From a virus (Duplodnaviria; Caudoviricetes), in IMG/VR virus record IMGVR_UViG_3300031759_000027, positions 1-56,410 of that record: 56,410 bases of DNA; one strand, given 5' to 3'. Positions 1,258 to 36,293 of this stretch are shown piece by piece (position 1 is the first letter of the stretch; every line of letters starts with the position of its first letter). The position numbers were made by a program, and so were the translations under genes. The notes beneath the pieces were generated by a model. The model searched no databases. It saw nothing but the letters and a program-made list of their open reading frames with translations, and was not told where the DNA came from.

Positions 1258-2479
1258 GTTCAATGATTTAAAAGTTGTTGTCTTACATGGCAAGCACAAA
1301 GAAAAGGCACTTCAAGAAGATGCTGACATCTACGTGATTAACCCAGAAGGTCTTGATTGGCTTTTAAAAGTTCAAAAAGAAAAGACCACGTCAGGCAAAA
1401 CCAAAGTAGCTTTAGACCTGAGAAGATGGAAGCAACTTGGATTTGACACGTTAATTGTTGACGAGCTTTCTAAGTTTAAGAACACGAACACCAACAGATT
1501 TAAAGCGATCAAGTTGATTCTTCATACATTTGGTCGTCGCTGGGGTTTGACAGGATCACCAGCATCAAATGGACTGCTAGACCTGTTCGGTCAGTGCTTT
1601 GTGATTGATCAGGGTAGAACCTTGGGTCCTTATATCACCCATTACCGCATGAAGTACTTCAATCCGACCTATGACGGCTTTGGCTGGGAAATCAGAGAAG
1701 GAGCTGAAGAAGAGATCTATGAGAGGTTGGCCCCGTTGGCCCTCAGAATGGCTGCTGACGATTATCTTGAGATGCCTACTCTAATTGAAAACAACATCAG
1801 AGTAGACCTTCCTGATGACATTAGAGATCTTTATGACCAGTTAGAAGAGGACCTGATTGCCAAAGTTGGTGATGGTGTAATTGTTGCAGCTACAGCCGCC
1901 GCCGCTTCGATTAAGTGTCGGCAAGTTGCGTCTGGTGGAATCTATCTAGATCCTGAGGTTGAGGCGTTAGTCAAGGTGCCAAAGACTAAGCGTGAATGGA
2001 TCAACCTACACACTGAGAAGGTGGATGCCTTAGCAGACCTCATTGATGAGCTGCAGGGATCACCCTTATTAGTAGCTTATGATTTTGCGCATGATCTAGA
2101 TCGGCTACAAGAGAAGCTTGGTAAAGAGGTGCCGTATATCGGAGGTGGAGTTAGCGCGACCAGGTCAGCCGAACTAGAGAAGCTTTGGAACGCTGGTAAG
2201 CTGCCAGTCCTATTAGGTCACCCACAGGCCATGGCGCATGGTCTAAACCTCCAAGAGATGGGCCATCATGTGGCTTGGCACAGCATGACTTGGGACTATG
2301 AGCTTTATGACCAGTTTATCCGCCGAGTCCTTAGACAGGGAAACAAGTCCAAGAAGGTGTTTGTTCACCACATTATGGCAAATGACACAATTGATGACGC
2401 AATGTTGGGATCTTTAAAAGCTAAAAAACGTGGTCAGAATGCTCTTTTTGATGCCTTAAAGCGGCTGCGGAAGAACTAG
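1001..2479 (+). CDS. SNF2-family (SF2) helicase
   Basis: YQ, GLGKT, DE(LS), LTGSP, HGLNLQ and Q..RRV.RQG motifs. Confidence 0.9.
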   Translation: MTTNLELFKPSSTPWKPHNYQKKAVKFLLEHAASALFLDPGLGKTSITLAAIKMLKKKKLLNKVLLIAPLRVCYSVWPKEIEKWTEFNDLKVVVLHGKHKEKALQEDADIYVINPEGLDWLLKVQKEKTTSGKTKVALDLRRWKQLGFDTLIVDELSKFKNTNTNRFKAIKLILHTFGRRWGLTGSPASNGLLDLFGQCFVIDQGRTLGPYITHYRMKYFNPTYDGFGWEIREGAEEEIYERLAPLALRMAADDYLEMPTLIENNIRVDLPDDIRDLYDQLEEDLIAKVGDGVIVAATAAAASIKCRQVASGGIYLDPEVEALVKVPKTKREWINLHTEKVDALADLIDELQGSPLLVAYDFAHDLDRLQEKLGKEVPYIGGGVSATRSAELEKLWNAGKLPVLLGHPQAMAHGLNLQEMGHHVAWHSMTWDYELYDQFIRRVLRQGNKSKKVFVHHIMANDTIDDAMLGSLKAKKRGQNALFDALKRLRKN

Positions 2480-22454: not shown

Positions 22455-23948
22455 TTATTGATTAACGTTGATGATGATATCAACTGTATGGATGGCTCCA
22501 GCTAACTTAGCAGCTACTTGGAACACAACTGATTTGCGAGCTGCACGATCAGCAGGGTTTTGAGTTGCGATTGGAGGGGCATAAACATAGAAGCCTTTAG
22601 GTAGGTAGTCACCTTGATTCAACGCACCAAAGCCGCCGCTATTCCAAACACCTGGAGCTAACAAACCGTTAGTCACGCCTTGTGAGCAAACTGCTTCAAT
22701 TGTTGTTGCAATCAAATGGTTACCGGCGTCAGTTTGTGGCACCTTAGTTGGTGTTGTGTAGAGCAGGTTGTAGACGCTAGTCTGAATATCAAGCGCTAAC
22801 CAATCTGTTCCTGTAATCACGTCGATAAACTGTCCAGACGCGCAAACACCAGGCTCAATAATTGCTGTGTTGTTGTTATAAGCAACAAACACGTTGCAAT
22901 TAAATGACTCAAGGGCATTTAACTGATTTACGTTTAAGGTTTCAGCAGCGATACCAGGCTCTTGTTTGTACATCAGCGTGATAACAGTGTTGTTGCCGTT
23001 ATAGTTAGTTGTTAAAATGCGAGCTAGCAAAGAGCAAACTGCATACGCGCTAGAGCTAGAGTACTGAGTTTGCGTGCGGTTATATCCAAGCTGTTTAACT
23101 TGATAGGCAATGTTCGTTGTATCAGAAGAATTCAATACCGCAGCTTCTTGTGTACTAATGCCGTATAGATGCTTAGTGGTTGCGCCTTCAATGTAAGCAG
23201 CACAAGCAAGATGGTCAGAATCAGATGCGCCAAGGATTGTTGTTGCGTACCACTGTGGGCCAAACTGGAGGTCAAACAACTCTAATGCTTGGATTGCTGT
23301 TTCAGCGGCAATACCAGGAACTAGGTAGGCGCCAGATGAAGTTGAAGTGCCGCCAAGCAAAGCGCTAATGTCTGTGCCAGTAGCTGCAGCAGTTAAGAAG
23401 CTCACAGAAGAAGTTGTTCCGGTAGTACCAGAAACAAACTCAAAGCGAGAGTAATTAGACGACCATTGAACAGTCACGCCAGTTACGATTAAATCAATTG
23501 CAGCTTGGATTGTTGCAGCAACTGCGTTTAAGTTTGCATCAGCTGAAAAGTTCAAGCCTGTAACATCATGGCCAGTTCCGTCGATTGATACATGGAACGA
23601 TCCAGATAGGATTGAAGTCCAAGTATTCATTGCCTGCGCAGAAGCCGATAAAGATGCGCAATACATCTCGCCAGCAGAATTGGTTTTTGCCCAGCGACCA
23701 ATGTTTAATGTAGTTGGTTGTGGTGATTGTTCAAACCAAAGAGCCGCTGCGTAGTACTCAGGAGCAGTTACCCCAAAGTCAGAAGCAACACCAGATAAAC
23801 TAGTATAAGTTCTCATACGTGTCACTGTGTCAATGACAGTAGAAGAACCAATAATCAACAAAGTTGAAAGATTTTGAAATTGCGCCCCTGCAGGTGTTAA
23901 GTTAACACTTGCATTGACTAATCGATTGATGGGAAGTGTACTGGTCAT
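22455..23948 (-). CDS. Tail sheath protein (DUF3383-like)
   Basis: DFG...PEY.AA..F.Q.P.P, TL.YK.EPG, K.PQTD.G, RAARK, LAGA.H. Confidence 0.9.
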   Translation of the reverse strand: MTSTLPINRLVNASVNLTPAGAQFQNLSTLLIIGSSTVIDTVTRMRTYTSLSGVASDFGVTAPEYYAAALWFEQSPQPTTLNIGRWAKTNSAGEMYCASLSASAQAMNTWTSILSGSFHVSIDGTGHDVTGLNFSADANLNAVAATIQAAIDLIVTGVTVQWSSNYSRFEFVSGTTGTTSSVSFLTAAATGTDISALLGGTSTSSGAYLVPGIAAETAIQALELFDLQFGPQWYATTILGASDSDHLACAAYIEGATTKHLYGISTQEAAVLNSSDTTNIAYQVKQLGYNRTQTQYSSSSAYAVCSLLARILTTNYNGNNTVITLMYKQEPGIAAETLNVNQLNALESFNCNVFVAYNNNTAIIEPGVCASGQFIDVITGTDWLALDIQTSVYNLLYTTPTKVPQTDAGNHLIATTIEAVCSQGVTNGLLAPGVWNSGGFGALNQGDYLPKGFYVYAPPIATQNPADRAARKSVVFQVAAKLAGAIHTVDIIINVNQ

Positions 23949-23959
23949 GGATTTTTCTC

Positions 23960-24547
23960 CTATTGGTTAACCGCGATATCAGTAATGTAGTGCTCATTAT
24001 CTAACCGGATATCTCCAGACAAAATATTGAGCACTGGGTAATCACGAACAATCTGTCTGCGGATTGAAAAAGGCAGATCAACGCGATATAACCACTTTTG
24101 CTTTAACAACTCTGGCAGCGTAACAATCTCGCCGCAAGCTACTAAGCCCATATTGTTCAGGCTAAGGATTTCCCTATTCTGAGACAAATACATGCCTTCT
24201 CGCAGCACCTGTGAATTAAGATCAGCATTAGGACCATAAAATGAAATCAAGAAATGCATGATCTCATGGTTAATTACTTGACCATATCCACCGGTCTCAT
24301 TCGGGATAAATTTTTCATACGCGAACGTCTGAATTTCACGCCGAACAACACCAAGCGCTGCCCAACTTACATCTTCTTGCGGGATATTTGTTGACTCTGG
24401 CTGCCAACGAGGCCTAACATTTTTGCCTAGCATACCAGTGATTCCTACAACCCAAGATTGCACAAAGTCGACAAGGGCTTCACCTTCCAATGGAGCTGGT
24501 GAGCTCGATGGTGTTAGGTAACCGCCAGTTGCCGAAGTGTTGCTCAT
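23960..24547 (-). CDS. Neck/tail terminator protein
   Basis: S.TGGYL.P, VRPRWQ, FYGP; directly upstream of sheath. Confidence 0.75.
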   Translation of the reverse strand: MSNTSATGGYLTPSSSPAPLEGEALVDFVQSWVVGITGMLGKNVRPRWQPESTNIPQEDVSWAALGVVRREIQTFAYEKFIPNETGGYGQVINHEIMHFLISFYGPNADLNSQVLREGMYLSQNREILSLNNMGLVACGEIVTLPELLKQKWLYRVDLPFSIRRQIVRDYPVLNILSGDIRLDNEHYITDIAVNQ

Positions 24548-24915
24548 CTTGTACCCGCTCCTTGCTGGTATTTTACTGTGAAAGTACCATCTGAATTTTT
24601 AACATGTGATACCACAAACCAGCCCTTGGTCTTCATGGCTGCCACTGCTTTTTCCATTTGATACAAGGATGTGTAAGATTCTTCTTTTGTGGAGTCTTTA
24701 GCTGAGCGGGCTTTCTTTAAGAGCTCTTGAAGATGTTTAGAGACCTCTGACAGTGACATCCTCTTGACTACTGCGATGAGCATCTGTTTTTCAGAAGAGG
24801 AAAGATCTTTCCTGGCCTCGAGCAAGCGAATCGCTGAAGCAATCTGACCGGCGTGGAATACACTGCCTTCCATTGAATCTCTATACTTCTTATGGATATG
24901 AATGTGAACTGCCAT
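24544..24915 (-). CDS. HIHIH-leader protein 5
   Basis: MAVHIHIHKKYRDS; internal SAKDS. Confidence 0.75.
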   Translation of the reverse strand: MAVHIHIHKKYRDSMEGSVFHAGQIASAIRLLEARKDLSSSEKQMLIAVVKRMSLSEVSKHLQELLKKARSAKDSTKEESYTSLYQMEKAVAAMKTKGWFVVSHVKNSDGTFTVKYQQGAGTR

Positions 24916-24916
24916 G

Positions 24917-25192
24917 TTACCACTCCTTGCATGTAAATTGAACTCCCTGATTGCCCAGGATTGATACTTCGCCCTTAGCTACTGGGTAGTATTGTAATGT
25001 TGAATGCATGTGACCTGGGTCAATTCTGATTGAACCTAGACCAGACGATGCAGGTCCTAGATCGTTTATCCAGATCGAATGGCTTGGACTGAGGTTCTGG
25101 ATAAAGAAGCCCTTTCGAAGATCATTCTTTTCTAAGAGGATCTGGGCCGTACCCGTTTTAAGGACAGTGCCTGATTTATCTTCTAATCTCAT
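24917..25192 (-). CDS. Hypothetical small virion-module protein
   Basis: ATGA overlap with upstream gene; beta-rich, RKGFFIQN. Confidence 0.6.
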   Translation of the reverse strand: MRLEDKSGTVLKTGTAQILLEKNDLRKGFFIQNLSPSHSIWINDLGPASSGLGSIRIDPGHMHSTLQYYPVAKGEVSILGNQGVQFTCKEW

Positions 25193-25584
25193 ATTCTTAC
25201 CTTAGCTGGGTTGACGTCAGTCTTATCCATGGATTCACATTCGGCTTGGTAAAAACCCTCGCCAAATTGTGGGTAGTAGTCCACATGACGGACCACATAA
25301 TTATCACCACGCCATACTATCACGTCAGCTTGATATCCAGTCACCTCTGATTGGAGTTGGAACTTGAGCACCACCGAGATTGTTCTTGTCGTCGCTTGAA
25401 AGTCTACGTCGCGCCCAAGATCTGATGGACTACTCATCGTCACAGTTCCGTACACTGGATTGTAGGTTCTGATGACATTTTCACCCCGGCCATTATCTCC
25501 CATAACTTCCTGACGTCTTAGCACCTTGAAGGTATCTAAGAACATTGGATCTAGAAGGGCATCTGACATGTCTAAGAGAGCCAT
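25189..25584 (-). CDS. Head-tail adaptor/closure protein
   Basis: LD.SD.L.DP.F...V.RR...G, D...W.G..Y.V...G.GF; synteny. Confidence 0.7.
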   Translation of the reverse strand: MALLDMSDALLDPMFLDTFKVLRRQEVMGDNGRGENVIRTYNPVYGTVTMSSPSDLGRDVDFQATTRTISVVLKFQLQSEVTGYQADVIVWRGDNYVVRHVDYYPQFGEGFYQAECESMDKTDVNPAKVRI

Positions 25585-26144
25585 TATTTTTTCACCACGT
25601 AGATGATTGAATTTCTAAGTTGGCCAGTATTGACCAACGGTGTAATGCCAACAGATGCTTGGGCTTCTGCAGGAGAAGCTCCTTCAGCGATCTGCTTCAT
25701 GTATTCTTTTTCGCCCTTGCGCATAGACTTTGTCTTGCGCCCATATTTACGGGCTTCAATTGTTGCAGGCTTTAACGGTGGTGGAATACCTTCTGTGATA
25801 ACACCACGAATTGCGTTTTGAGCAGCTAGGCCAGCTCGGTTTAAGCAGGCATTGACCAAGCCTTCGTTGCCAGTCAGGACTGCTGAAGCAGCTACTTTAA
25901 ATTCTGCCCGAATGGTTGGCGTGGCGCGTTTAATACCAGGGCGCATAAAAGGCCTTGCAGGCACATTATTTGCAGGAGCCCCGTTGTCATGAATGTAAGC
26001 CAAGGTTGCATTATTGATCGGTTCATCTGTTCTCGCAGTCTTTGATCTAGGCACGCCAACAAGCACATCTTTCTGCACTAAAGCATCAAAAGCTGCCAGT
26101 AACTTGGGCAGCTTATTTGTGATGAGTTTAGCAGGGTTTTGCAT
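25584..26144 (-). CDS. Neck/tail completion protein
   Basis: VLVGVP, NA.LAYIH..G.P...PARPF.RP, PLV.TGQLR.SI. Confidence 0.8.
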   Translation of the reverse strand: MQNPAKLITNKLPKLLAAFDALVQKDVLVGVPRSKTARTDEPINNATLAYIHDNGAPANNVPARPFMRPGIKRATPTIRAEFKVAASAVLTGNEGLVNACLNRAGLAAQNAIRGVITEGIPPPLKPATIEARKYGRKTKSMRKGEKEYMKQIAEGASPAEAQASVGITPLVNTGQLRNSIIYVVKK

Positions 26145-26150
26145 TAGGAG

Positions 26151-26528
26151 TTATAAATCACCAAGCTGCATACGAACAACAGCACCAAGTCTGTTATATG
26201 AGGAAACAGCTTTCTCCATTGCTGCGCGTTCAGCTGGAGTAACAGTTTCTTTTCGAGATTCTTTGTGTTTAACTTCTTTCATCAAGTCTTGAGCTTTTTT
26301 CTTTAGCACAAGCGCGTTATCACGTTTTCTGATGAGATCATCAATGATCGCTTTTACCTCATTGATATTTTTCTTATCTGAATTTTTAGGGTACGGCAAA
26401 AGTCCAGAGCCCTGCCCAACGTGGGCTCCGTTCCATGTATTAAAGACAGTTTCGAGGATTCTATAACCTTTATATTCCACGACTTGTGTATCTTTTGTTT
26501 TGCGGTGGACGTGAATATGAATTGCCAT
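26151..26528 (-). CDS. HIHIH-leader protein 4
   Basis: MAIHIHVHRKTKDT. Confidence 0.75.
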   Translation of the reverse strand: MAIHIHVHRKTKDTQVVEYKGYRILETVFNTWNGAHVGQGSGLLPYPKNSDKKNINEVKAIIDDLIRKRDNALVLKKKAQDLMKEVKHKESRKETVTPAERAAMEKAVSSYNRLGAVVRMQLGDL

Positions 26529-26530
26529 GA

Positions 26531-27010
26531 TTAGCTTCCAAAGTTAGTAAAGCCAGGGGTGGTCAAAGGACCTTGCCAGCCTGGACCATTTAATGGGGGA
26601 GTGTAGCCGATGCCGACTTGTAGTGGGCCAGCTCCAAAGATCTTAGCAAGGCGGTAGAACCTGGTGCCATAAATCGTTTGATTCCAGTGACCAGCATCTT
26701 TTTCTGTTACTGCGCCAGTATCATACCCGATCGAGACCTTGTCAACGCCCTTGCTGCTAATTGGGCCAGTCTGTTGACCTGGAATGCCGCCGACAGAAGA
26801 TTCTTTTTGGGCCTTGGCCTCTAGTACGATTTGATGAGCCGTATAAAGAGCAACCCCTAGGTTTGTTGAGTTTGCCCAACGTGACCCATCGACAAACCGG
26901 CCTGCAACATCTAACCAAAAATCAATCTGCGCTTTTGGATAGGTTTGTGTGCATTCAAACTCAGGAAATTGCTGCCTAAAGGTTGCCGTGTCAAGGGTTG
27001 GAGTTGCCAT
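26531..27010 (-). CDS. Head-tail connector (DUF4054-like)
   Basis: FR..FPEF...YP, L.TAH, S..V.KVS..Y, W..T.YG..F. Confidence 0.85.
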   Translation of the reverse strand: MATPTLDTATFRQQFPEFECTQTYPKAQIDFWLDVAGRFVDGSRWANSTNLGVALYTAHQIVLEAKAQKESSVGGIPGQQTGPISSKGVDKVSIGYDTGAVTEKDAGHWNQTIYGTRFYRLAKIFGAGPLQVGIGYTPPLNGPGWQGPLTTPGFTNFGS

Positions 27011-27018
27011 GATAGTTC

Positions 27019-27243
27019 CTAGCGTGGATTTGCTTTGATTGCGGCTTCGACAGCTTCTAATGCGGTTCTGGCAGCTCCTGCAGCTTTATCAACTGAGAAT
27101 CTGTTTGTAAGAACACGCTCGTTGCCAGCAAGTGCTTTTAAATCAGCAGTAATTCTAGCAAGGTCACGCTGCGCACTTGCAAGGGTGCCGATGATGCCAG
27201 CATCTTTTGCTTTACCTGAATGAATGTGAATATGAGTGGTCAT
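27019..27243 (-). CDS. HIHIH-leader protein 3
   Basis: MTTHIHIHSGKAKDA. Confidence 0.75.
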   Translation of the reverse strand: MTTHIHIHSGKAKDAGIIGTLASAQRDLARITADLKALAGNERVLTNRFSVDKAAGAARTALEAVEAAIKANPR

Positions 27244-27245
27244 GA

Positions 27246-27458
27246 TTAGCTCTTTAGAACACGTTGAATTTCAGCCCAGATGCCAGGACCACGAAAGTTT
27301 CCACCAATTGAATAGGCTTCTTTTTTCAAGTCTTCTTTAAGTTTACGAGCTTTCTCTACGACTTCTTTGCGGCGACGCTCCTCATCAGGACCAATGGTGC
27401 CATCTGGGTTCGCGTCTTTTGCACGGCTACTTAGGTGGATATGGATGTGCTTGGTCAT
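27246..27458 (-). CDS. HIHIH-leader protein 2
   Basis: MTKHIHIHLSSRAKDA. Confidence 0.75.
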   Translation of the reverse strand: MTKHIHIHLSSRAKDANPDGTIGPDEERRRKEVVEKARKLKEDLKKEAYSIGGNFRGPGIWAEIQRVLKS

Positions 27459-27883
27459 AGGATTTTTTCAGCCCCAATAATAGAGCCCATGTCAAGTTTG
27501 TGCAACTCTTTTGAGAGATCTTGTTCAGTCAACTTGTCAACTTTTGGTGCAAGTTCATTTGCGTCACGCAAAACAGCCGAGAGCTTTGCTTTGAGCTGCG
27601 CTAAAGAATCAATCTTAGCGATCAAGTTCTCAATACGCCTTGGCAAATTTTTTGCAAGTCTGGCGTTATAGCCTTCTGCATCTTTTGCTTTTTTATCATT
27701 AGCACGCTTCGCACGAAGATCATTATGACCTTTAGACCAGTCTAAATGCTCTTGTGTACCCTTCTCGTATGGGTTCTCATCGTACTTTACGCCTTTGGTC
27801 GCAGCCATCGAACCTTCGTTGTAGTGCTGCTTTGCGTCTCGTGCTTTCGCAGGACCTAAATGAATGTGAATGTGCTTGGCCAT
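27455..27883 (-). CDS. HIHIH-leader protein 1 with Rmf/CrpP-like segment
   Basis: MAKHIHIHLGPAKARDA; Y.EG..A...G.....NPY..G......W..G; internal KAKDA. Confidence 0.75.
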   Translation of the reverse strand: MAKHIHIHLGPAKARDAKQHYNEGSMAATKGVKYDENPYEKGTQEHLDWSKGHNDLRAKRANDKKAKDAEGYNARLAKNLPRRIENLIAKIDSLAQLKAKLSAVLRDANELAPKVDKLTEQDLSKELHKLDMGSIIGAEKIL

Positions 27884-27885
27884 GG

Positions 27886-28128
27886 TTAAGCCTCCGAGCT
27901 TGATTCTTCACCACCACGATGAGCCCAATATTTCTTGTTCTCTTCGTTAATCGTTGCCAAGGTTACGTGCTCAGGCACGCATTCGACAACTGTTGGTTCG
28001 TATTCGTCGTTTGCGCGCTGAGTCTCGTAAGCGATTGCTGCCGCCTGCTTAGGATCTTTGCCATGCTTGATCTCTGTCGCAATATTCTCTTTTAATGCTT
28101 TTTCTGAACTTCCTTGAATTAACGGCAT
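27886..28128 (-). CDS. Conserved small phage protein
   Basis: MPL..GSS.....NI..E...GK..KQA.AIA pattern; AAGGAG SD. Confidence 0.7.
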
Positions 28129-28480: not shown

Positions 28481-28523
28481 AAGAAAAAAGAGACCCCTAC
28501 TTTTCGTGATAAGTAGAGGTCTC
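28481..28523 (-). terminator. Rho-independent terminator after major capsid gene
   Basis: 13-bp stem with one G-U (28490-28502/28511-28523) followed by TTTTTTCTT on the minus strand. Confidence 0.85.
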
Positions 28524-28535
28524 AAGCTGCAAGGT

Positions 28536-29645
28536 TTAGATACCGTCGAAGTAGCCGATGGTCTCTGGGTAGACAACTTCAACTGCGCCTAAGCGGCAGA
28601 AGTAAGTAGTCTTGTGGTAGATCGAGTCGTACTGGATTGGAGTACGTTGCAACAATGTCATTGGGTAACGAACACGTTGCTTCTCTTTTGTGTAAACTAC
28701 CATACGGTCAACTGTACCGAGTGTGCCGATAGTACCGCCTACACCTGCACCGATCAACCATTTCAATGGGAAGATCTCTAACTTGCCCTTACCAGAAGTA
28801 GTCAAGAGGTTGTTCTCTTGGATGTACTTGAGGATGGACACGTTACCAGCATTAGAAACTTTAGCTGTTGAGATGTAACCAAATTGTGCTGGTGGCAACA
28901 ACAAACGACCTGGGATGACTGCCCATGCAGAGGCTTGCCATACTGATGTCAACGCAGTGTTAACGTCAGCAAGGATCTCGTCAGGAGTCTTCTTAGACCA
29001 TTGTGTGAAGGTAGAAGCGCCAGCAACTACAGGCTGAACGTTTGTTACCAAGCTGTTGTTAACTAGACCAGTGTCGCCAGTGGAATAGTCACCAATATAC
29101 ACTTGCTCATCAATGTCCATTTGATGCTTGAGCTGTAAACCTTCATACTTCTGTTGGTCTACTGGACGGCCGAGTTTAGCAGCAGATTCAAGTTCCAAGA
29201 TGGTGTACTTGAGTTCCATTGCCCATGGGCGCAATTGATGTGGTACTTTGGCGATATCAGCAGAGATGCCAGTGATCTGGTCGGTATTCTTACCGATCCA
29301 TGCCTTGCCGTTACCAACGCCTTGTCCAGCGCCTAAACCAGAGGCTGAAGCGAAGGTAGACAATGTGAAGCTAGAAACTTCATCAGCAATCGTTACGTCT
29401 TCACGCAGATCCAAGTCACGACCCCAAGTCACAGAAGCCAAAGGCTCGTGCAAGGTCATGTCTAAGCGCTCTAATTCACCAACCAAGAACGCGCCTGTGC
29501 TATCAACTGTACGACCGTCAGCTGTGCGGAATGAACCACCCAAAGGACGACCAACCATGTTGCCCATTTTGTCGATTGTTCGGAAGCCTGAATCGAAAGT
29601 CATCATGTCGCGAACCTTGCGACGTGGTAAAAGAATGTTGCTCAT
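28536..29645 (-). CDS. Major capsid protein (DUF2184-like)
   Basis: GAFLVGELERLD..L.EPL...TW.RD..LREDV; size, position, strong SD, terminator. Confidence 0.9.
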   Translation of the reverse strand: MSNILLPRRKVRDMMTFDSGFRTIDKMGNMVGRPLGGSFRTADGRTVDSTGAFLVGELERLDMTLHEPLASVTWGRDLDLREDVTIADEVSSFTLSTFASASGLGAGQGVGNGKAWIGKNTDQITGISADIAKVPHQLRPWAMELKYTILELESAAKLGRPVDQQKYEGLQLKHQMDIDEQVYIGDYSTGDTGLVNNSLVTNVQPVVAGASTFTQWSKKTPDEILADVNTALTSVWQASAWAVIPGRLLLPPAQFGYISTAKVSNAGNVSILKYIQENNLLTTSGKGKLEIFPLKWLIGAGVGGTIGTLGTVDRMVVYTKEKQRVRYPMTLLQRTPIQYDSIYHKTTYFCRLGAVEVVYPETIGYFDGI

Positions 29646-29660
29646 TGTTAGCTCCTTATT

Positions 29661-30215
29661 TTAGTTAGCTGGGGTGATGAAGATTTCAGCAACACCGTTT
29701 GCATCCATACCGCCTTGGAAATTAGCATTCGTTACCAAAACGTTATTTGTGCCGTCAGCAGCTGTTTCAAACTGACCGATGATGTGTGCGCCAGAGGTTG
29801 CAGCTACGCGAACGTAAACTGGACCATTTTTAACTGGAGCTGTTTGACCAAGATTAACTTGGACCATGATGTAACCAGAACGCAATACATCAATCACGTT
29901 GCCTGCAATTCCAGCGTTGCCGATAGCAGCAGCACCAAAGTTGTTAGCAGATGATTGTTGGAATGGGTATGGACGAACTGTCACACCGTAAGCAGCGCTA
30001 GAAGCGTCGCCAGTTGTGAAAGGACGTGTACCTTGGCTTGCTGGATCAATCAACACAGCCTGACCAAAAATGGCAGGAGGTGCAGCTGGGTCAACCAAGC
30101 ATGGCTCGATTGAAGCTGGGTGGGTACGGTTTACATCACCGGAGAAGCCTGCGCCCATACGGAATGGGAAGGCCACGTCACGGGTTTTCATGCGTGTAAC
30201 TTGTTTCATTTTCAT
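29661..30215 (-). CDS. Head decoration/cement protein
   Basis: RM..G..GDV, G..VR.YP.Q, VLRSGY..V, G.VYVR; directly upstream of capsid gene. Confidence 0.8.
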   Translation of the reverse strand: MKMKQVTRMKTRDVAFPFRMGAGFSGDVNRTHPASIEPCLVDPAAPPAIFGQAVLIDPASQGTRPFTTGDASSAAYGVTVRPYPFQQSSANNFGAAAIGNAGIAGNVIDVLRSGYIMVQVNLGQTAPVKNGPVYVRVAATSGAHIIGQFETAADGTNNVLVTNANFQGGMDANGVAEIFITPAN

Positions 30216-30221
30216 TTCTCC

Positions 30222-31043
30222 TTAGTGGTTGGCCCAGTATGAGGCGTTCTTCTTGTTCAGTTCAGACAAGGACAGAGGACCGGCTGATTGAGCAGAGTTG
30301 CTCACGTCACCAGTGCGACCGGCATTGTTATTTGCTGTCTTTTTAATCGCGGCAGCAGAACGGAACAGGGTACGAACAGCGTCACAGGTCATCTGTTTAG
30401 TGTTCAAAGTTTTACCAGCTAACAACTCATCAAGAATTGCGCGGGTAGAAGGTTGGTTGTAAGCAACGTCCAAAGCTTGACGACGCAAACCACAAATCTT
30501 CTTGAAAGACTGGCCAGGTTTTGCAGCGCGATCGAACGTAGGAACACGGATGCCAGGAACTAAGATCTCGGCCAAGCCGATTGTGTCTTTGTAAGAATCA
30601 ACTAGCAAGCTAGAATCCTTAGTCATCTTAATTTCTTCATCTGAAGTACCTTCAGGAGCTTCTTCTTTCAAAGCACCTTCGATTTCGCCTTGAATACCTT
30701 CTTCGTCACCGGTAGCTGCGCCTTCACCTGCTTGACCAGCAATCAGCTTCTCTAGTGCTTCGATGCGGGCGCGCATTTCAGCATGTTCAGCTTCGTTCTT
30801 GTCCATGTGCTCTTGGATGTCGTCATCAGTAAAACGAGCGCGAGAACCTAATTCTTCTCCGCCTTCGTCGCCTGTGCCAGCACCAGAAACTGGGGTTGGA
30901 GCAACTTCTCCGCCGTGAACATGCACATGCACGTCACCAGGTTCTGCGTGTGGAGGGAGGTCTTCGTCATGAACCTTTCCTTTACGCAAGGCATCCTTTA
31001 CGCCTTTTGATACAGCATCAGCAATACGGCTATACTTTGGCAT
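30222..31043 (-). CDS. Nested in-frame scaffold protein
   Basis: AAAGGAG SD before in-frame ATG 31043 at the end of the protease domain. Confidence 0.6.
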   Translation of the reverse strand: MPKYSRIADAVSKGVKDALRKGKVHDEDLPPHAEPGDVHVHVHGGEVAPTPVSGAGTGDEGGEELGSRARFTDDDIQEHMDKNEAEHAEMRARIEALEKLIAGQAGEGAATGDEEGIQGEIEGALKEEAPEGTSDEEIKMTKDSSLLVDSYKDTIGLAEILVPGIRVPTFDRAAKPGQSFKKICGLRRQALDVAYNQPSTRAILDELLAGKTLNTKQMTCDAVRTLFRSAAAIKKTANNNAGRTGDVSNSAQSAGPLSLSELNKKNASYWANH

Positions 31044-31595
31044 AGCTATCTCCTTTGGTGAATGGTCGTTAACAGCGCATCGCGGGCCGCAACGACCTTG
31101 GTCGACCAGCGCGATATGGTTGCAAATTATGTTGAGTTGGCGTCCAACACCAGGACGGACTTCTTCATAATCTGCGTCGTAGCCAAGACTAATTTCAACT
31201 TTGTCATTGTCTAAGATTTCTTTGATACCTTCTTTATCAGTGATAATCAGATCACCAATAAGAAGATCGTCGTAAGCACCTTCGCCACGACGAATATTGA
31301 TTGCAGTACCTAAAGCTAATTCTTTCCAGTTTTCAGGAGTTACATCCTCATCAGGATGATCATTTGTGACTGGCTTGCCTAGTAAACTTGCCATTGTTTC
31401 AGGACGGAATACTTCATCATCGTCTCTGAAGATCTTTACTAAACCATCAGGACCTGCGTCAATCGGTGTTTCATCAGGGCCGTAAATCATCATACCAGTT
31501 CTAGCTAATGGAACATCTTCGCAAAGCAAAAATCCCTCAGGTGTAAGCGACCGTTTTGGCCCTAGCTTCTCAGTGGTATAAAAAGAACCCTTCAT
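30222..31595 (-). CDS. Prohead protease-scaffold (DUF2213-like)
   Basis: TPEGFL...ARTG...Y, PVT.DHP, EIS.GY, NH.ALV..GRCG..C; acidic scaffold C-terminus. Confidence 0.88.
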   Translation of the reverse strand: MKGSFYTTEKLGPKRSLTPEGFLLCEDVPLARTGMMIYGPDETPIDAGPDGLVKIFRDDDEVFRPETMASLLGKPVTNDHPDEDVTPENWKELALGTAINIRRGEGAYDDLLIGDLIITDKEGIKEILDNDKVEISLGYDADYEEVRPGVGRQLNIICNHIALVDQGRCGPRCAVNDHSPKEIAMPKYSRIADAVSKGVKDALRKGKVHDEDLPPHAEPGDVHVHVHGGEVAPTPVSGAGTGDEGGEELGSRARFTDDDIQEHMDKNEAEHAEMRARIEALEKLIAGQAGEGAATGDEEGIQGEIEGALKEEAPEGTSDEEIKMTKDSSLLVDSYKDTIGLAEILVPGIRVPTFDRAAKPGQSFKKICGLRRQALDVAYNQPSTRAILDELLAGKTLNTKQMTCDAVRTLFRSAAAIKKTANNNAGRTGDVSNSAQSAGPLSLSELNKKNASYWANH

Positions 31596-31667: not shown

Positions 31668-32120
31668 TCAAAGCAATTCTAACACAAGAGCCTCTAGTGT
31701 GTCACGTAAATGTGGATGAAGATCATCAGGTAATTCATGCAACTTGATCCACTTATATTTGCTATGTTCAGGGCTCAATTTTGGCTCGAACTTATCAACA
31801 CGTAACATAAATGTGGTGTAGTCAGCCTGACCATCAACCGTGTGGGCAATCTCTTTTAAGGCATCTGCGTAGCGATCAAAGTCCTTGCTAATTCCACACT
31901 CTTCTCGGCACTCACGAATGGCTGTAGCTCTGATTGATTCATCACCATCATCTGCCTTACCACCTGGAAGATCCCACAGACCTGGATGATTAGATTCCTC
32001 ACTTCTCTTCATCACAAGAATCTCATCATCAGCCACAAACAAAATACCTGCTGCAATGACTCTTGGAGCGGCATCCGTGATGTGGACTCGTTTGCCTAAA
32101 ATGTGTAGTGTGATGTTCAT
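31668..32120 (-). CDS. NUDIX hydrolase
   Basis: W.LPGGK...DES...A.RECREECG Nudix box. Confidence 0.88.
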   Translation of the reverse strand: MNITLHILGKRVHITDAAPRVIAAGILFVADDEILVMKRSEESNHPGLWDLPGGKADDGDESIRATAIRECREECGISKDFDRYADALKEIAHTVDGQADYTTFMLRVDKFEPKLSPEHSKYKWIKLHELPDDLHPHLRDTLEALVLELL

Positions 32121-32890
32121 TCGTTAATCTCCGGTAAGATAGGTTCCATGTAGCACCTGCAGTTGTAAATTCCACCTGGAAGTAATGGTTGACCATCGAC
32201 AATGGGTGGATTGGCAATTTCAAAGATCTTGTTTGCGACCTTCTTGTGTGATTCTCTGACATCATGATCATTGGCTGTCCGCCAAACAAAATGAGTACAT
32301 TGCGCAGTCCTAGCGCGTGCTGCTGTAAGCTCGGTCGCGATTCTAGAGGTTTCAGTCCTTGCAATTAACATCGCACGACTTTCAGTGACCTTTCCAGTCT
32401 TTAAAACTTCTTGCGCAATTGTAGAAGCTCTAGTACCTGCAGACATACCGTCAATAATTACTTTGTGGACTCGCTGCGCAGCTTGTGTTGGCAAGGATGT
32501 GATCAGATCAACTTGCTCGTTAATAGAATCTCTAAATAGTTGACCTGTTGGTGTTGTTTCAATTTCACCACGAAGCTGCTCACCAATGTCTGCTCCAAGA
32601 TCTGCCCACATGGTGGCGTCGCGTCTTGCTACATCTTCAACCATTCTTGTTGCGACAGACTTCGCCCAGGGACGAAGCATCTCAGCATACTTCGACAAGG
32701 CGTTTTGAAGTTGCGTAGAATCGGTGATCTGCTTTGGGCTAACAAAGCCCTTAACAATTGAACCAACTTGTTTAGCTACTTGTCTGAGCTGCCTAGCGTA
32801 AGCTTGCTCAGCCTTTCTACTTTTTAAGTAGATCTGCTGACTTTTACGATACTCAGTCTTCGATCCTCTGGCATCAAATGTTCTTAGCAT
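32117..32890 (-). CDS. Head morphogenesis protein (SPP1 gp7/Mu F-like)
   Basis: RA.LIARTE, W.T..D..VR.SH, PG...NCRC. Confidence 0.88.
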   Translation of the reverse strand: MLRTFDARGSKTEYRKSQQIYLKSRKAEQAYARQLRQVAKQVGSIVKGFVSPKQITDSTQLQNALSKYAEMLRPWAKSVATRMVEDVARRDATMWADLGADIGEQLRGEIETTPTGQLFRDSINEQVDLITSLPTQAAQRVHKVIIDGMSAGTRASTIAQEVLKTGKVTESRAMLIARTETSRIATELTAARARTAQCTHFVWRTANDHDVRESHKKVANKIFEIANPPIVDGQPLLPGGIYNCRCYMEPILPEINE

Positions 32891-34475
32891 TGCTTTGAGC
32901 CTCTAAATCTTCAGGCTTTGCACCAGCTTCATCTGATGAAATTTTCTCAACTGATGGTTCAGCTGCTGGCAAATTTGATTCTTTTGGCTTTATCTGTTTG
33001 ACATGGCTTGCTGGACTAGGTTCTGAAAAACCGGTGAATCCCTCATGCTCGCCACCGTCTTCATGACCTGGCACCAAACCTTCACCTGATGGTGGCATAG
33101 CTGATTCAGCGTCCTCAATGTCCTCATCGGTGATATTCGTGAAGATGCCGGTCTTATCAGATGATTGGCGAAGCTCTTTCATGGCTGCTGCTTGACTGAT
33201 TAGACCTTGCGACTCAGCACCTGAGATAGCTTGAGCTACAGTACTTGCCACGTTGGCCTTATCAAGATCAGACATCTGCCACAAGCTCTTAAACTCAATG
33301 CCAAAACCTTCTGGTAGCTCGATGTCTTCAGAAGCTGCAATCGCACGATAGATCTTAGTCATCGGAACAAGCAGCTGCTTGACCTGTTGTTGGCGAATGT
33401 TATCATAGTAGTTGCGTAAATCAGAATCACCAGAATTAAAGCCTAACGGTGACTGACCAAACAAACGGACTAATGGAATTTGAAGGGCACCAGAAAGTTG
33501 CTGGCCAAACTGTTGTAGAGCGTCAGACAAGCCTGAGAAGCCACCATGTGTTGTTGCCTCCATGCTGTCATTGGCATCTAGCAACGTGATACCCTCAATG
33601 CCCTGGAAGCGACGCATCATGTCGACATATCTAGTCAAAGCTGCAACTGCGTCGCCACCGGCTGCTGAGATCTCACGCATGCCTTCAATCTTATACGTTC
33701 TGATGTAGCTCTTGAAAACAAGCTGCGCAGCTCCTGTTGTGGCTGAATCAAACGCAACCATGCGATCATAGAGACGTTCAAATACGGATAAGCCCCAAAG
33801 GTTCTCCATTACTCGCTGCCAATATGGCAAACGAACACCCTCAAGACGTAAGCAACGGCTGTAATGAATCTTTTGGCGGTTTAATGCGGGCGCGTTTGCT
33901 GTTACTGAATAGAATTTAGGCTCACCCATGTTGGCGCCCATTTCAGTAACCAGGTCTGAAAGACTAGGCTCAACCATCCAGCGGTCTAAAACTAACAAGC
34001 CACGGAACTGACCCTTGCGGATCGTATTTAGTCGCAGCGGCGTCTCAGGATCTTGACCATCAATCAGCATGACGGCAATGCAACCACCATAAAGACGAGA
34101 CCACTTAATGGCGTCGTTGATCTGATTCCAAACGCCGTACATTGTGGCAACTTCTTCGATGTGCTGCATGTCATCAGGATCTAACTTGCCTTTGAGCTCA
34201 ACACCAGCTCTTGTCATGTCATCAGCAACAACGTCAACAGCAACACCACCTAACCAAGATCCGCGATGGATCCATTCAAGCAATGTTCGATTGCGAGTAA
34301 TCGGGTTGAAGCCGTAAGTCGAAGACGTTAATGGATTATCTGAACCGATACCCATGTTCTGAGAAAAATTAACGAAGCTATCAGCTGCAACGCCGCGCTT
34401 CGCTTTGTCTCTTGCCCGATTGTCCTTGTTTAAAGAACTGTTGGCAAATCGTTGAATGCTTTTTTGCTTAGCCAT
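32874..34475 (-). CDS. Portal protein (DUF1073-like)
   Basis: W.....VD..A.DMTR, W.RLYGG, IH.SR, IP..RLFGQSP.G, D..NYYD. Confidence 0.9.
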   Translation of the reverse strand: MAKQKSIQRFANSSLNKDNRARDKAKRGVAADSFVNFSQNMGIGSDNPLTSSTYGFNPITRNRTLLEWIHRGSWLGGVAVDVVADDMTRAGVELKGKLDPDDMQHIEEVATMYGVWNQINDAIKWSRLYGGCIAVMLIDGQDPETPLRLNTIRKGQFRGLLVLDRWMVEPSLSDLVTEMGANMGEPKFYSVTANAPALNRQKIHYSRCLRLEGVRLPYWQRVMENLWGLSVFERLYDRMVAFDSATTGAAQLVFKSYIRTYKIEGMREISAAGGDAVAALTRYVDMMRRFQGIEGITLLDANDSMEATTHGGFSGLSDALQQFGQQLSGALQIPLVRLFGQSPLGFNSGDSDLRNYYDNIRQQQVKQLLVPMTKIYRAIAASEDIELPEGFGIEFKSLWQMSDLDKANVASTVAQAISGAESQGLISQAAAMKELRQSSDKTGIFTNITDEDIEDAESAMPPSGEGLVPGHEDGGEHEGFTGFSEPSPASHVKQIKPKESNLPAAEPSVEKISSDEAGAKPEDLEAQSNAKNI

Positions 34476-34794
34476 TATTTTGTGCCCTTACAGGTAGGAT
34501 GGCAGTTACTGCCAAGCGGCGGTGTGGGATGCTGGTATCACAGAGCATTTGGATGTTGTAGGTCACGTTATCAAGACCACCAACAACTGGCTGCTGTGCA
34601 AATTTTCCAGATGGGTCAATCCAAGAAGCTCCTGAAAGAATATTTGAGGCATTAGGATCGACTCCTGAGTTCAATGTCACAACAACTGAAACAACATTGA
34701 CAAGAATCTCATCGGGAGCTAATGCATCAGAATAGTCAAAAGTGATAATGACATCCTCATCTGGATCTTTATCAGTCAAAATGTTGCATGTCAT
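34468..34794 (-). CDS. Fibre adaptor-like virion protein
   Basis: KDPDE....FD...L...E...GG..G/N..Y......TS..R pattern; ends the fibre cassette. Confidence 0.55.
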   Translation of the reverse strand: MTCNILTDKDPDEDVIITFDYSDALAPDEILVNVVSVVVTLNSGVDPNASNILSGASWIDPSGKFAQQPVVGGLDNVTYNIQMLCDTSIPHRRLAVTAILPVRAQNNG

Positions 34795-36293
34795 TTCAAG
34801 GTCCTCGCTATGTAGTCACGCACCGATGAGTAAGCTGTATAAAACCGCTCGCCAATGTAAGTAGTATATTCTCTCACAAACGACTGGGCTAGGTAGCGGT
34901 AGTCTAGCTCTAGTGGCTTTTTCAACTGGGCGAATAGCGTTATTATACCTTGGACCGCCACGGTCAAAATTGGCCTGATTTGTCGCACAATGGACGCGGT
35001 AGCACTAACTGAGACCATCATTAGATGACCTCGAAGTGTACTGAGTTGAGATTCTACGTAGGTGATCACACTCTGCAACATGTTAATTGACTTAATCATC
35101 AAGTTTGTTGATAGCACGTCCACAAATTTTGTGATACTTAAGAATTTAGCAATGTAAACAAAAGATGAAACTGCAATTGCGTATGATGCACTGATAAATC
35201 TACCGATTTGTATGGACGTAGTCACAGCAACTGAGTACGTAGCGCCGATCACTCGATTGATATACACCAACGAGCTTACAACAACCATGTCGACTAACTT
35301 ACCAATCTGGTTTGTAAGCGTAGCTACTGAACTAACAGCTGCAATGAGTAAGCTGCTAACTTGCTTGTAGACAGCAGCTGAGCCAATAACAAGTGTGCTG
35401 AGAGTAGTACTAATGAACCGGCCAATTGCCAGAAGCGATAAAACGCTAGTTACGTAAGTTACGCTAATCGCGCGGGCAATGTACATGGAAGCTGTTGCAG
35501 TGGTGTTAAGCAGCTTACCAACCTGATTTGTAAGGGCGGCTATTGAATTAGCTGCAACAACTTGTAAGTTGCTGACTTGTTTATAAACTGCGGCCGAGCC
35601 TGTGATTGCCCAACTGATAGCTGTTTTAATAAAGCGGCCGATTTGGATGTCTGTGACAACAAGAACAGCGATTGTAAGAAGATGTCCTGCATTATGTTGA
35701 ATGGAGATATACGTTGCTGAAACAAAATAGTAAACATTGACAAAGAGATTTCTAGGCGTTACGATTGCAGCAGTTGCTGTAGTGAGCAACAACTTACCAG
35801 CTTGCCTAGTCAACGTAGCGACAGCTGTAGAAGCTGCTGAAAGCGGCTTTAAGATATTTTTTGTAGCTACAAGAACAACACTAGATGCAAAAGCAATTGT
35901 CTGGCCAATAAATCTTGAAGTTGTAATTGTTGAAGTTGTTGAAATCGATCTTAGGATGCCTACTGTTTTAGAAAGGGTTACTCCGCCAGATGCACTAAGC
36001 ACAAAGGTCTTTATCATCGACAATTGGACAACTAATGTGGTAGTAATAAAAAACGCTATGGTTTTGCTAATGGCTCTTAATTGAGACACCGCAGCCAAAA
36101 CTAACACCGCTAAGTTCTTATTGACCATTTTCAACATTGAAACAGCTGAAATGCAAGAAATCAAAATATTTTTCAATGTTAGCGTAGATCTTGCTACGAA
36201 AGATGTGACTGAAATGGTCATCACCTTTATAAACGAGTTTCCTGACTTAATACTTGAATAAGGAGTTTCAGAGAACGAAGATCCAGAGAACAT
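34791..36293 (-). CDS. Ser/Thr/Val/Ile/Ala-rich repeat protein, probable fibre component
   Basis: 500 aa ORF; repeated IGRFI and GSAAVYKQVS...LTNQ.GKL units. Confidence 0.7.
   Translation of the reverse strand: MFSGSSFSETPYSSIKSGNSFIKVMTISVTSFVARSTLTLKNILISCISAVSMLKMVNKNLAVLVLAAVSQLRAISKTIAFFITTTLVVQLSMIKTFVLSASGGVTLSKTVGILRSISTTSTITTSRFIGQTIAFASSVVLVATKNILKPLSAASTAVATLTRQAGKLLLTTATAAIVTPRNLFVNVYYFVSATYISIQHNAGHLLTIAVLVVTDIQIGRFIKTAISWAITGSAAVYKQVSNLQVVAANSIAALTNQVGKLLNTTATASMYIARAISVTYVTSVLSLLAIGRFISTTLSTLVIGSAAVYKQVSSLLIAAVSSVATLTNQIGKLVDMVVVSSLVYINRVIGATYSVAVTTSIQIGRFISASYAIAVSSFVYIAKFLSITKFVDVLSTNLMIKSINMLQSVITYVESQLSTLRGHLMMVSVSATASIVRQIRPILTVAVQGIITLFAQLKKPLELDYRYLAQSFVREYTTYIGERFYTAYSSVRDYIARTLK

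Follow-up and report, generated by a model that had tools for sequence, protein, structure and literature searches.

IMGVR_UViG_3300031759_000027 of IMG/VR is a complete virus record of 56,410 bp from an uncultured tailed phage, called here the window, with a myovirus head-neck-sheath module on the minus strand at about 22.4-36.3 kb. Five minus-strand late genes of this phage, designated c1 to c5, open with M-x-x-HIH(I/V)H, followed by basic-x-basic-Asp. This leader is almost certainly a modular, lineage-specific N-terminal tag that is selected as a peptide and linked to a matching motif in the protease-scaffold protein of the phage, a DUF2213 fusion. It probably targets otherwise unrelated proteins to the capsid and is released there by the head protease. 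The arrangement proposed is a T4-like capsid-targeting and propeptide system, which is unreported in the literature searched; no description of an HxHxH or HIHIH phage leader was found there.

The genes c1 to c5 are wedged among conserved head and neck genes, and their start and stop codons touch or overlap those of their neighbours (Table 1), which bears out the placement given in the first-pass annotation. The start of c2 overlaps the stop of c1, c4 sits between the DUF4054 gene and the Neck1-type gene, and the stop of c5 overlaps the start of the next conserved gene (23960-24547). The annotation had also described five proteins that share a leader and then diverge. The open reading frames (ORFs) were confirmed, and an all-against-all blastp comparison found no meaningful mutual similarity among the bodies, i.e. 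the parts after the Asp. The best cross-match is a 20-residue Lys/Glu-rich stretch, scored against a database of five sequences only. All five bodies are small, largely helical and basic (pI 9.2-10.2 after the Asp), as expected for proteins packed with DNA. In c1, the leader is followed by a small domain (aa ~18-68) and a helical tail. The domain matches RMF, the ribosome modulation factor, in Pfam with E 5.6e-4 and 20.4 bits, below the cut-off of 27.9. Its structural neighbours in the Atlas, themselves predicted models, are clusters of 55-aa 'putative ribosome modulation factors' (template modelling (TM) score 0.85 by target), a lead only. Since the gathering score is missed and the remaining support comes from predicted models, the domain is named RMF-like and not RMF. 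Pfam and PHROGs return no family for c2 to c5, and the Atlas yields no informative structural neighbour for c4. Among 92 related sources, the window included, homologues of c2 were found in 7 and of c5 in 4; c1, c3 and c4 matched only themselves, and the capsid protein was present in 87. A relative of c3 (P0026, 75 aa) is present in the representative library.

The motif is not a product of chance. In the six reading frames of the whole window, H[IV]H[IV]H occurs exactly six times: at the five N-termini and, as the sixth and last, as DVHVHVH in the DUF2213 gene (30929-30915, minus strand), where the first-pass annotation had placed it. As chance model, 60 first-order Markov simulations of the window were used. 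They contained on average 0.05 copies of H[IV]H[IV]H (maximum 1) and no M-x-x-HxHxH arrangement, compared to six and five observed. The copies in c1 to c5 are written with differing His and Ile/Val codons. Among 42 distinct leaders from the window and related loci, 36 distinct 15-nt encodings were counted, and synonymous codons are used freely (His: CAC 59, CAT 67; Ile: ATT 35, ATC 22, ATA 7). This means that selection acts on the peptide, as had been proposed from the five window genes. The leader motif is hence both non-random and selected as a peptide.

Related loci were collected with the capsid protein as query, which retrieved 256 IMG/VR stretches; the best 80 were kept. Together with the window, these head modules provided 42 distinct complete tagged proteins. 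When aligned, they share only M1, H4, H6, H8 and D16, and the mean column identity elsewhere is 9%. The conserved Asp follows HxHxH at a variable distance, and the leaders end with [KR]-x-[KR]-D, then A, S, T or G. Mapping of 55 tagged genes placed every one of them within the head/neck module and on the strand of the head genes, in at least 8 different slots: upstream of the portal gene, in the gap between MuF and protease genes, on either side of the DUF4054 gene, between neck genes and after the sheath gene. From the first 34 residues, a leader profile of 44 positions was made; among 1.84 billion cluster representatives, it matched 98 proteins of 56-467 aa (E<=0.001). The leader is at the N-terminus in 97 of them, and the best stretch begins at residue 1 in 94. 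Of the 97 N-terminally tagged representatives, 96 have A, T, S or P as second residue and 86 have the first His at position 4. The leader is thus, as suggested earlier, a portable N-terminal module on unrelated proteins.

According to the annotation, the idea would be refuted if the motif were also common in phages without this scaffold type. Degenerate DNA patterns for MAKHIHIH, MTKHIHIH and MARHIHIH matched 11, 3 and 3 stretches in IMG/VR. Homologues of the portal, scaffold, capsid or neck genes of this phage are present in 15 of these 17, and the other two are fragments of 4.4 kb and 7.6 kb. In 596 Gb of bacterial and archaeal genomes, the MAKHIHIH pattern had five matches, none beside such head genes, and no prophage copy was found; by a rough estimate, five matches are near chance level. 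Judged by these searches, the HIHIH leader is confined to phages with this type of head module. Some leaders have one His replaced (L070 at about 1500-1600, plus strand; L098:8214-8747, plus strand; P0061 and P0098), with the sequences MGIVIHYHLPRATARVRVRD, MARHLHIFIHTHD and MAKHIHIYLPARTRD. In the leader sequences, the alternation appears to matter more than any single His.

The partner motif is located in the DUF2213 protein (Pfam E 3.5e-47, 161 bits vs a cut-off of 22; phrog_530 'head maturation protease', E 2.6e-51). Its AlphaFold2 (AF2) model has a mean predicted local distance difference test (pLDDT) score of 80.8 and is composed of a protease domain (aa 1-178), an acidic/Gly disordered linker (aa 204-252, pLDDT about 31-36) and a helical scaffold (aa 257-456). 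The best fold match in the PDB is the T4 gp21 protease (5jbl_B), a weak one with E 0.037, probability 0.90 and TM 0.45 by target. In BFVD, 104 neighbours were found at E<=0.001, many of them named prohead or capsid maturation protease. S70, H80 and S136 are invariant and H160 is near-invariant, which makes them candidates for catalytic residues. By sequence, the protein also matches the 'scaffolding protein' gp24 of Pa193 (9b40_G, E 2.8e-5), residues 286-326 of which bind the capsid interior according to the accessible text (PMC11456595). HVHVH falls into the predicted disordered linker, a location typical of a short docking motif. In most of the related scaffolds, the motif reads (G)(D/E)T-H-I/V-H-I/V-H and is found at the same place within the otherwise gappy acidic/Gly-rich linker. 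Over 59 scaffolds, H225 and H227 are at least 90% conserved despite the gappy surroundings. In addition, C169, C173, C368 and C404 are invariant or nearly so in these scaffolds. The first two form a C-x3-C (GRCGPRCAIGD) at the end of the protease domain, the others are in the C-terminal helical part. The four Cys could constitute a metal site or disulfides tying the two halves together, which might bear on the metal idea discussed below.

Scaffold motif and leader co-occur. This had been named as a check, and it was carried out on 61 distinct full-length scaffolds with tagged genes counted in the fetched DNA. At least one tagged gene was found at 29 of 52 loci with the scaffold motif and at none of 9 loci without it (Fisher p 0.002, uncorrected for relatedness). 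For loci of at least 10 kb, the counts are 23 of 36 vs 0 of 5 (p 0.011). The nine motif-less loci comprise 91 kb of fetched DNA; HNHIH variants occur in two of them, and HIH is retained in one. In seven cultured DUF2213 phages, scaffold motif and tagged ORF agree. Edwardsiella phage vB_EpM_ZHS combines ATHVHIH in the scaffold with the tagged ORF ZHS_5, (GTG)-KQIHIHLHRHATQD-TNWEESKHPR..., and Phage WC36-2 combines DTHVHIH with the tagged ORF MARHIHVHFYTGD-AGEWKEGDHPR.... In Burkholderia phage BgManors32, both the scaffold motif (QIHIHM) and the leader of gp73 (MARHLHIFIHTHD) are degenerate. Bordetella IFTN9, Acinetobacter Ab105-1phi, Ralstonia PY059YO380 and Pseudomonas PB1 have neither scaffold motif nor tagged ORF. 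With 567 records, DUF2213 head proteases are common among the cultured phages of Vibrio, Klebsiella, Escherichia, Acinetobacter and Pseudomonas. In the literature searched, judged from listings, no description of DUF2213 activity or specificity was found. As to vB_EpM_ZHS, ZHS_5 (L108 2727-3071) is annotated as 'putative portal protein' and is in fact a 114-aa protein of leader and KHPR module (see below); the annotation probably derives from similarity to portal-fusion junctions. ZHS_4 just upstream is annotated as 'prohead protease', and the DUF2213 gene is ZHS_11. By their titles, the papers on this phage deal with phage storage stability and aquaculture phage therapy.

The first-pass annotation had described one leader motif, M-x-x-HIHIH...(K/R)D. 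This needs a correction in one detail, since the leader consists of two parts: HxHxH, which is common to cargo and scaffold, and basic-x-basic-Asp, which recurs without HxHxH on the major capsid and cement proteins. The major capsid protein begins with a 13-residue extension, MSNILLPRRKVRD (29607-29645, minus strand), before the conserved start x-MTFD; the sequence runs MSNILLPRRKVRD-MMTFD. Similarly, the cement protein has a 13-residue extension, MKMKQVTRMKTRD (30177-30215, minus strand), before the conserved VAFxFRMGAGF, here VAFPFRMGAGF. An extension ending with R-x-K/R-T-R/H/Q-D is present on both proteins in 45 of 88 loci. In 8 of the 88, both proteins start directly, and the initiator Met replaces the residue after the Asp. 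Seven loci combine a direct capsid protein with an extended cement protein, one shows the reverse, and the rest are unclassifiable. Among cultured phages, the capsid proteins of ZHS, Ab105-1phi and IFTN9 carry ...R-A-R/Y-T-R-D. The likeness of the second half of the leader to these R-x-K-T-R-D extensions, seen in the sequences, is new beyond the earlier annotation. Compared to the R-x-K-T-R-D on capsid and cement proteins, the cargo sites ([KR]-x-[KR]-D) have a looser consensus.

By sequence comparison, the Asp is a module boundary common to leaders and to capsid and cement extensions. Because the extension-less orthologues begin exactly after it, a cleavage site is suggested. A sequence-specific boundary common to three kinds of head protein would be best explained by one protease, and the obvious candidate is the DUF2213 protein of the phage itself. 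In T4, gp21 takes off the capsid-targeting sequences and cleaves behind Glu, an acidic residue, which makes a relative with Asp specificity plausible. Since capsid and cement proteins have the Asp site without HxHxH, HxHxH probably serves something that only cargo and scaffold need, and the two halves of the leader probably differ in function. In the accessible parts of the cryo-electron microscopy reports on E217 and XM1, the first 65 and the first 30 residues, respectively, of the capsid protein are described as invisible and possibly cleaved. Further basic-x-basic-Asp sites are found in c1 (aa 73-77, KKAKD-A, between the RMF-like part and the helical tail), in c4 (aa ~81-85, IRKRD-N) and in the scaffold (aa ~206-211, KGKVHD-E, 11 residues before HVHVH). 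If the Asp rule is real, these internal sites predict extra cuts.

What the tag carries is best seen in relatives. At L091:7999-8496 (minus strand), the leader precedes a complete Acb1 domain (residues 29-161, Pfam 69 bits vs a cut-off of 27), and the HVT and HIT motifs align with those of Acb1 (7t26) and the C-terminus of the Pam3 portal. The protein is predicted to be an Acb1 phosphodiesterase directed against CBASS (antiphage signaling systems based on cyclic oligonucleotides). The idea that the cargo includes anti-defence proteins has thereby gained at least one tagged protein that matches a known anti-defence enzyme. Its best sequence match in the PDB is the Pam3 portal (8hds_A, 621 aa) at residues 489-604 (E 1.4e-8, HxT/HxS motifs aligned), which indicates that an Acb1-like domain is tethered to the portal in that phage. 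The accessible part of the Pam3 paper does not mention this Acb1-like 2H-phosphoesterase region. L047:1925-2914 encodes a tagged bacterial-type topoisomerase IB (Pfam E 1e-24; 2f4q, E 1.8e-30), and the tagged protein of L091:7409-7978 ends in a ParB-like DGHHR region. The known domains, beginning at residue 29 (Acb1) and about residue 65 (topoisomerase IB), are complete and start after the leader, so the leader is an add-on to a complete domain. Pfam searches with the 42 locus-derived proteins also returned a UBA-like match and the sub-threshold RMF match of c1, and one tagged protein has a marginal Phage_scaffold match (E 0.0097). For the 97 tagged representatives, only three single weak matches were obtained, and six long tagged proteins, including one of 657 aa, had no Pfam match.

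In 60 of 98 representatives, the leader is followed by a module with the consensus W-E-E-x-K-H-P-R-x3-G-x-F-G-S-G-G-G, termed the KHPR module. Its general form, directly after the leader Asp, is (D)-A/S-G-x-W/F-x-E-x-x-H-P/K-R-x3-G-K/Q/E-F plus a Gly/Ser-rich stretch, and it was seen in L028, L047, L070, L086, L091, L092, L093, L098 (BgManors32 gp73), L105 and L108 (ZHS_5). The module aligns to positions 279-312 of phrog_30637, the junction region of a family whose first ~300 positions match the portal. Copies without leader are present internally in L043, twice in one L070 protein and in a 535-codon frame of L011, where the module follows ...AAKD about 2.5 kb upstream of the scaffold gene. 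This frame is probably the portal gene. A tblastn search of the tagged KHPR protein P0002 against phages had no matches. The module possibly serves as a junction or anchor in passenger proteins inside the capsid. Together, the Acb1-like portal C-terminus and the KHPR module in portal fusions indicate that the same passengers are placed inside capsids elsewhere.

From these findings, the following mechanism is proposed. c1 to c5 would be small basic proteins made late together with the head proteins, each bearing a two-part N-terminal propeptide. The first part, (M)-small-K/I-H-I-H-I/V-H, would adopt the form of a beta-strand, with its three His all on the same face, and act as an address by which the tagged protein enters the procapsid during assembly, along with the scaffold. 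Docking could occur by pairing with the scaffold's own HxHxH, possibly via a metal ion, or at a binding site that the scaffold motif binds as well. The second part, basic-x-basic-Asp, would be cut after the Asp by the prohead protease, so that the body would be set free within the head. Once released, the basic proteins would remain with the packed DNA and accompany it into the cell. At least some of the cargo would be active at an early stage of infection, among other things against host defence, as the Acb1, topoisomerase IB and ParB-like domains under the tag in relatives suggest. These steps do not all have the same standing. Capsid targeting with release by the protease is the probable reading of the sequence data; ejection of the cargo as effectors is conceivable and somewhat short of an even chance. 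The simplest reading of HxHxH is co-localisation in the procapsid core. Homotypic docking of HxHxH via a bridging metal appears unlikely, although metal pairing is chemically reasonable: Designed peptides of the IHIHIQI type assemble by themselves into beta-sheets that bind Zn, according to the accessible text (PMC9656882). Cargo and scaffold motifs might equally well both bind to a third site, and docking of the cargo HxHxH on the capsid protein, the portal or the protease domain is likewise conceivable. Doubtful, too, is the most far-reaching version, in which a strand zipper of HxHxH bridged by Zn or another divalent ion, together with the Asp cut by DUF2213, would represent a programmable encapsidation code. 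Any protein with the 8-residue tag would then assemble along with the scaffold core, and the lineage would use this to inject a fast-evolving arsenal of Acb1, topoisomerase IB, ParB-like proteins and about a hundred families not known so far. Under the hexons of Pa193, chains of roughly 16 residues form a trimer that is unassigned, as described in the accessible text (PMC11456595). As PB1-like phages lack the motif, this is only an association of ideas.

Several observations weigh against capsid targeting with protease release. The motif is merely disordered in the AF2 monomer of the scaffold (pLDDT about 33); cis docking on the protease domain was sought in the same model, which is uninformative for that question. 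The co-occurrence counts are phylogenetically non-independent, and 23 of the 52 loci with the scaffold motif have no tagged gene in the fetched DNA, which implies a separate role for the scaffold motif. Between scaffold and cargo, no covariation of I/V variants was found, as exemplified by HVHVH vs HIHIH in this phage. Only the Leu variant HIHLH is common to cargo and scaffold (L055 and L059, one clade), a pattern to which L095 is an exception. Among the 52 scaffolds with the motif, only 15 have a site of the basic-x-basic-Asp type in the 70 residues that follow it, and the construction of scaffold and cargo hence differs in part. The idea that the cargo leader is a copy of the scaffold's own processing region was dropped for the same reason. 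Furthermore, the cement homologues of XM1 and Pam3 are located outside the capsid, as far as the accessible text of these reports goes, and an internal prohead protease would not obviously reach the cement extension. The Asp site may be cut elsewhere, by another enzyme, or be no cleavage site. A complex prediction with the protease-scaffold, the capsid protein, the leader alignment (first 40 residues) and two Zn had a score of 0.02 and a mark of 0.32; it was made without controls and counts neither for nor against binding.

Other explanations of the leader have to be considered. It might only be a pro-sequence that the protease removes, with HxHxH as an exosite or strand that recruits weak sites, and late proteins that are kept inactive or timed without any targeting or ejection. 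The boundary common to capsid and cement proteins would agree with this, as would the location of the scaffold motif on the protease side of the linker and the degenerate cargo sites, which compared to R-x-K-T-R-D might need docking help. However, neither the constant location in the head/neck operon nor the basicity of all five bodies would be explained, nor would the Acb1-like domain and KHPR module in portal fusions of other phages. Moreover, prohead proteases of this fold class, such as those of T4 and HK97, are active inside the procapsid, so the pro-sequence would already imply co-localisation. Altogether, this explanation is improbable. Even less is to be given to the view that the tagged proteins are packaged as structural or physical head components, which neutralise DNA charge, assist the scaffold or plug the core, with the enzymes as exceptions. 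The small, basic, largely helical bodies of the window would suit such a role, and so would the scarcity of Pfam matches among the 97 representatives and the marginal Phage_scaffold match. In contrast, c1, c3 and c4 are without homologue in the other 91 sources, vs 87 sources with the capsid protein. Bodies that are not kept among close relatives fit accessory or arms-race genes and not structural parts, and complete Acb1, topoisomerase IB and ParB-like domains bear the same tag.

A further alternative regards the N-terminus as a metal-binding tag that has no relation to packaging and is needed by the proteins for their own chemistry or stability. Without the initiator Met, most leaders would begin with X-X-His, the amino-terminal Cu/Ni arrangement (ATCUN), and continue with more His. 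The small residue at position 2 and the first His at position 4 in the profile matches point in this direction, and His/aliphatic heptapeptides bind Zn or Cu. However, the profile search favours that spacing, which is found in only 30 of the 42 locus-derived proteins. A metal site of this kind would not explain why the motif recurs in the scaffold linker, why the genes lie in the operon, why the leader is restricted to the lineage and why the Asp boundary is conserved, and it is hardly likely that all these unrelated bodies need one cofactor site. Such a role is very improbable. Finally, the repeat might act at the level of nucleic acid or translation, by ribosome pausing or coupling, or be a by-product of gene insertion, which the tight overlap of stops and starts with the neighbours and the insertion-like slots could suggest. 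With 36 different encodings for 42 leaders, conservation of the motif inside the scaffold protein and an Asp that follows at variable distance, this idea is close to refuted.

The remainder of the module has the order listed in Table 1, with two small conserved genes between the major capsid gene and the DUF4054 gene. One of them, 27886-28128 (minus strand), encodes a phrog_2423 protein that is common to PB1-like phages (L104, PB1 gp20) and is conserved where the tagged genes are not. The NUDIX hydrolase also matches positions 517-634 of the portal-fusion family phrog_15528. Its first 16 residues, MNITLHILGKRVHITD-A, consist of alternating aliphatic residues and His, a basic patch and then Asp-Ala. 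They look like a decayed leader, a likeness in sequence that is unproven. Directly 3' of the major capsid gene, at 28490-28523 (minus strand), a strong terminator-like hairpin with a 13-bp stem and a T-run is found, and the tagged genes are downstream of it. A hairpin directly after the major capsid gene is in the usual attenuator position of late operons. No excess of promoter- or terminator-like sites was detected around the five tagged genes. A megablast search with 8 kb of this phage against phages had no matches.

Table 1. Genes and motifs of the head-neck-sheath module and the five leader-bearing genes (positions in the window).
Feature	Position	Strand	Remarks
Large terminase (label)	34791-36293	-	500-aa ORF; labelled by position only, no PHROG match at E<=1e-5
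Portal	32874-34475	-	aligns to positions 3-298 of phrog_30637
MuF-like head morphogenesis protein	32117-32890	-	
NUDIX hydrolase	31668-32120	-	phrog_1198, E 1e-23; between MuF and protease-scaffold genes
DUF2213 protease-scaffold fusion	30222-31595	-	457 aa
Internal HVHVH of the scaffold	30915-30929	-	aa 223-227; reads DVHVHVH; disordered linker
Cement protein	29661-30215	-	184 aa; XM1 gp53 / E217 gp24 family; PF23982 E 7e-23, PF22758 E 1e-18
Major capsid protein	28536-29645	-	369 aa; PF09950, Pfam E 6.5e-78
Cargo gene c1	27455-27883	-	142 aa; leader MAKHIHIHLGPAKARD-A (aa 1-16); body pI 9.2
Cargo gene c2	27246-27458	-	70 aa; leader MTKHIHIHLSSRAKD-A; basic helical body, pI 9.5
Cargo gene c3	27019-27243	-	74 aa; leader MTTHIHIHSGKAKD-A; body pI 10.2
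DUF4054 protein	26531-27010	-	
Cargo gene c4	26151-26528	-	125 aa; leader MAIHIHVHRKTKD-T; body pI 9.7
Neck1-type protein	25584-26144	-	
Cargo gene c5	24544-24915	-	123 aa; leader MAVHIHIHKKYRD-S; body pI 9.8
Tail sheath	22455-23948	-	further head-completion genes between the Neck1-type gene and the sheath gene

If capsid targeting with protease release is true, the leader would provide, for the first time outside T4-like phages, a capsid-targeting signal whose signature is sharp and can be searched for. It would also be the first such signal to have a counterpart in the scaffold. This would make the recruitment of internal proteins to the prohead directly testable. Another gain would be a minimal peptide, 13-16 residues long, by which foreign proteins could be brought into a capsid of the HK97 fold. 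As a bioinformatic handle on injected phage proteins, it has already yielded the 97 tagged representatives, nearly all without known family, and could serve as a search key for new anti-defence proteins. In addition, the Asp-ending R-x-K-T-R-D extension predicts the specificity of DUF2213 head proteases.

The closest known counterpart is found in T4, where the internal proteins IPI-III, Alt and others carry capsid-targeting sequences (CTSs) that are removed by the prohead protease gp21. In both cases, a short N-terminal peptide is present on unrelated, mostly small basic phage proteins, a cleavage-type boundary follows an acidic residue, and the cargo includes counter-defence functions. Furthermore, among solved structures, gp21 is closest in fold to the protease of this phage. 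However, the HxHxH motif is unrelated to the T4 signals and much more sharply conserved; to our knowledge, T4 CTSs have no HxHxH-like signature. The consensus cleavage motif of T4 is L/I-x-Glu, whereas the putative site here is basic-x-basic-Asp and does not match the T4 motif. Unlike in T4, the scaffold itself has a matching motif and the protease is fused to the scaffold (DUF2213). Moreover, this phage, a myovirus of 56 kb, belongs to the E217/Pam3/XM1 structural type, and the system is predicted from its sequence.

Encapsulin cargo-loading peptides are similar in that unrelated cargo would be led into a shell of the HK97 fold by a short, portable peptide. They are typically located at the C-terminus, attach to the shell itself and stay uncleaved, whereas the phage tag is N-terminal (97 of 98 profile matches), common to the scaffold and followed by a cleavage-like boundary. 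The Dar proteins of P1 and the ejection proteins of phiKZ and SPN3US are head-internal, trimmed by a protease and injected against defence, according to the accessible parts of the papers (PMC12810830, PMC7411985, PMC10052503). Incorporation at assembly, trimming by the head protease and injection to counter defence are proposed here as well. However, P1 uses ordered protein-protein incorporation and the giant phages use S/A/G-x-Glu sites with no common address motif, and both systems are without HxHxH tag or scaffold counterpart. Portal and MuF fusions (Pam3; phrog_30637, phrog_15528) carry the same kinds of passenger in the head, i.e. Acb1-like, KHPR and NUDIX. There, the passengers are covalently tied to a structural protein, whereas in the phage described here they are encoded by free-standing genes with a leader. 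Finally, the designed IHIHIQI peptides have the same (aliphatic-His)n alternation, which places His on one face of the strand. They are synthetic heptapeptides that form amyloid with inter-strand metal sites, and the phage motif is likened to them by its sequence.

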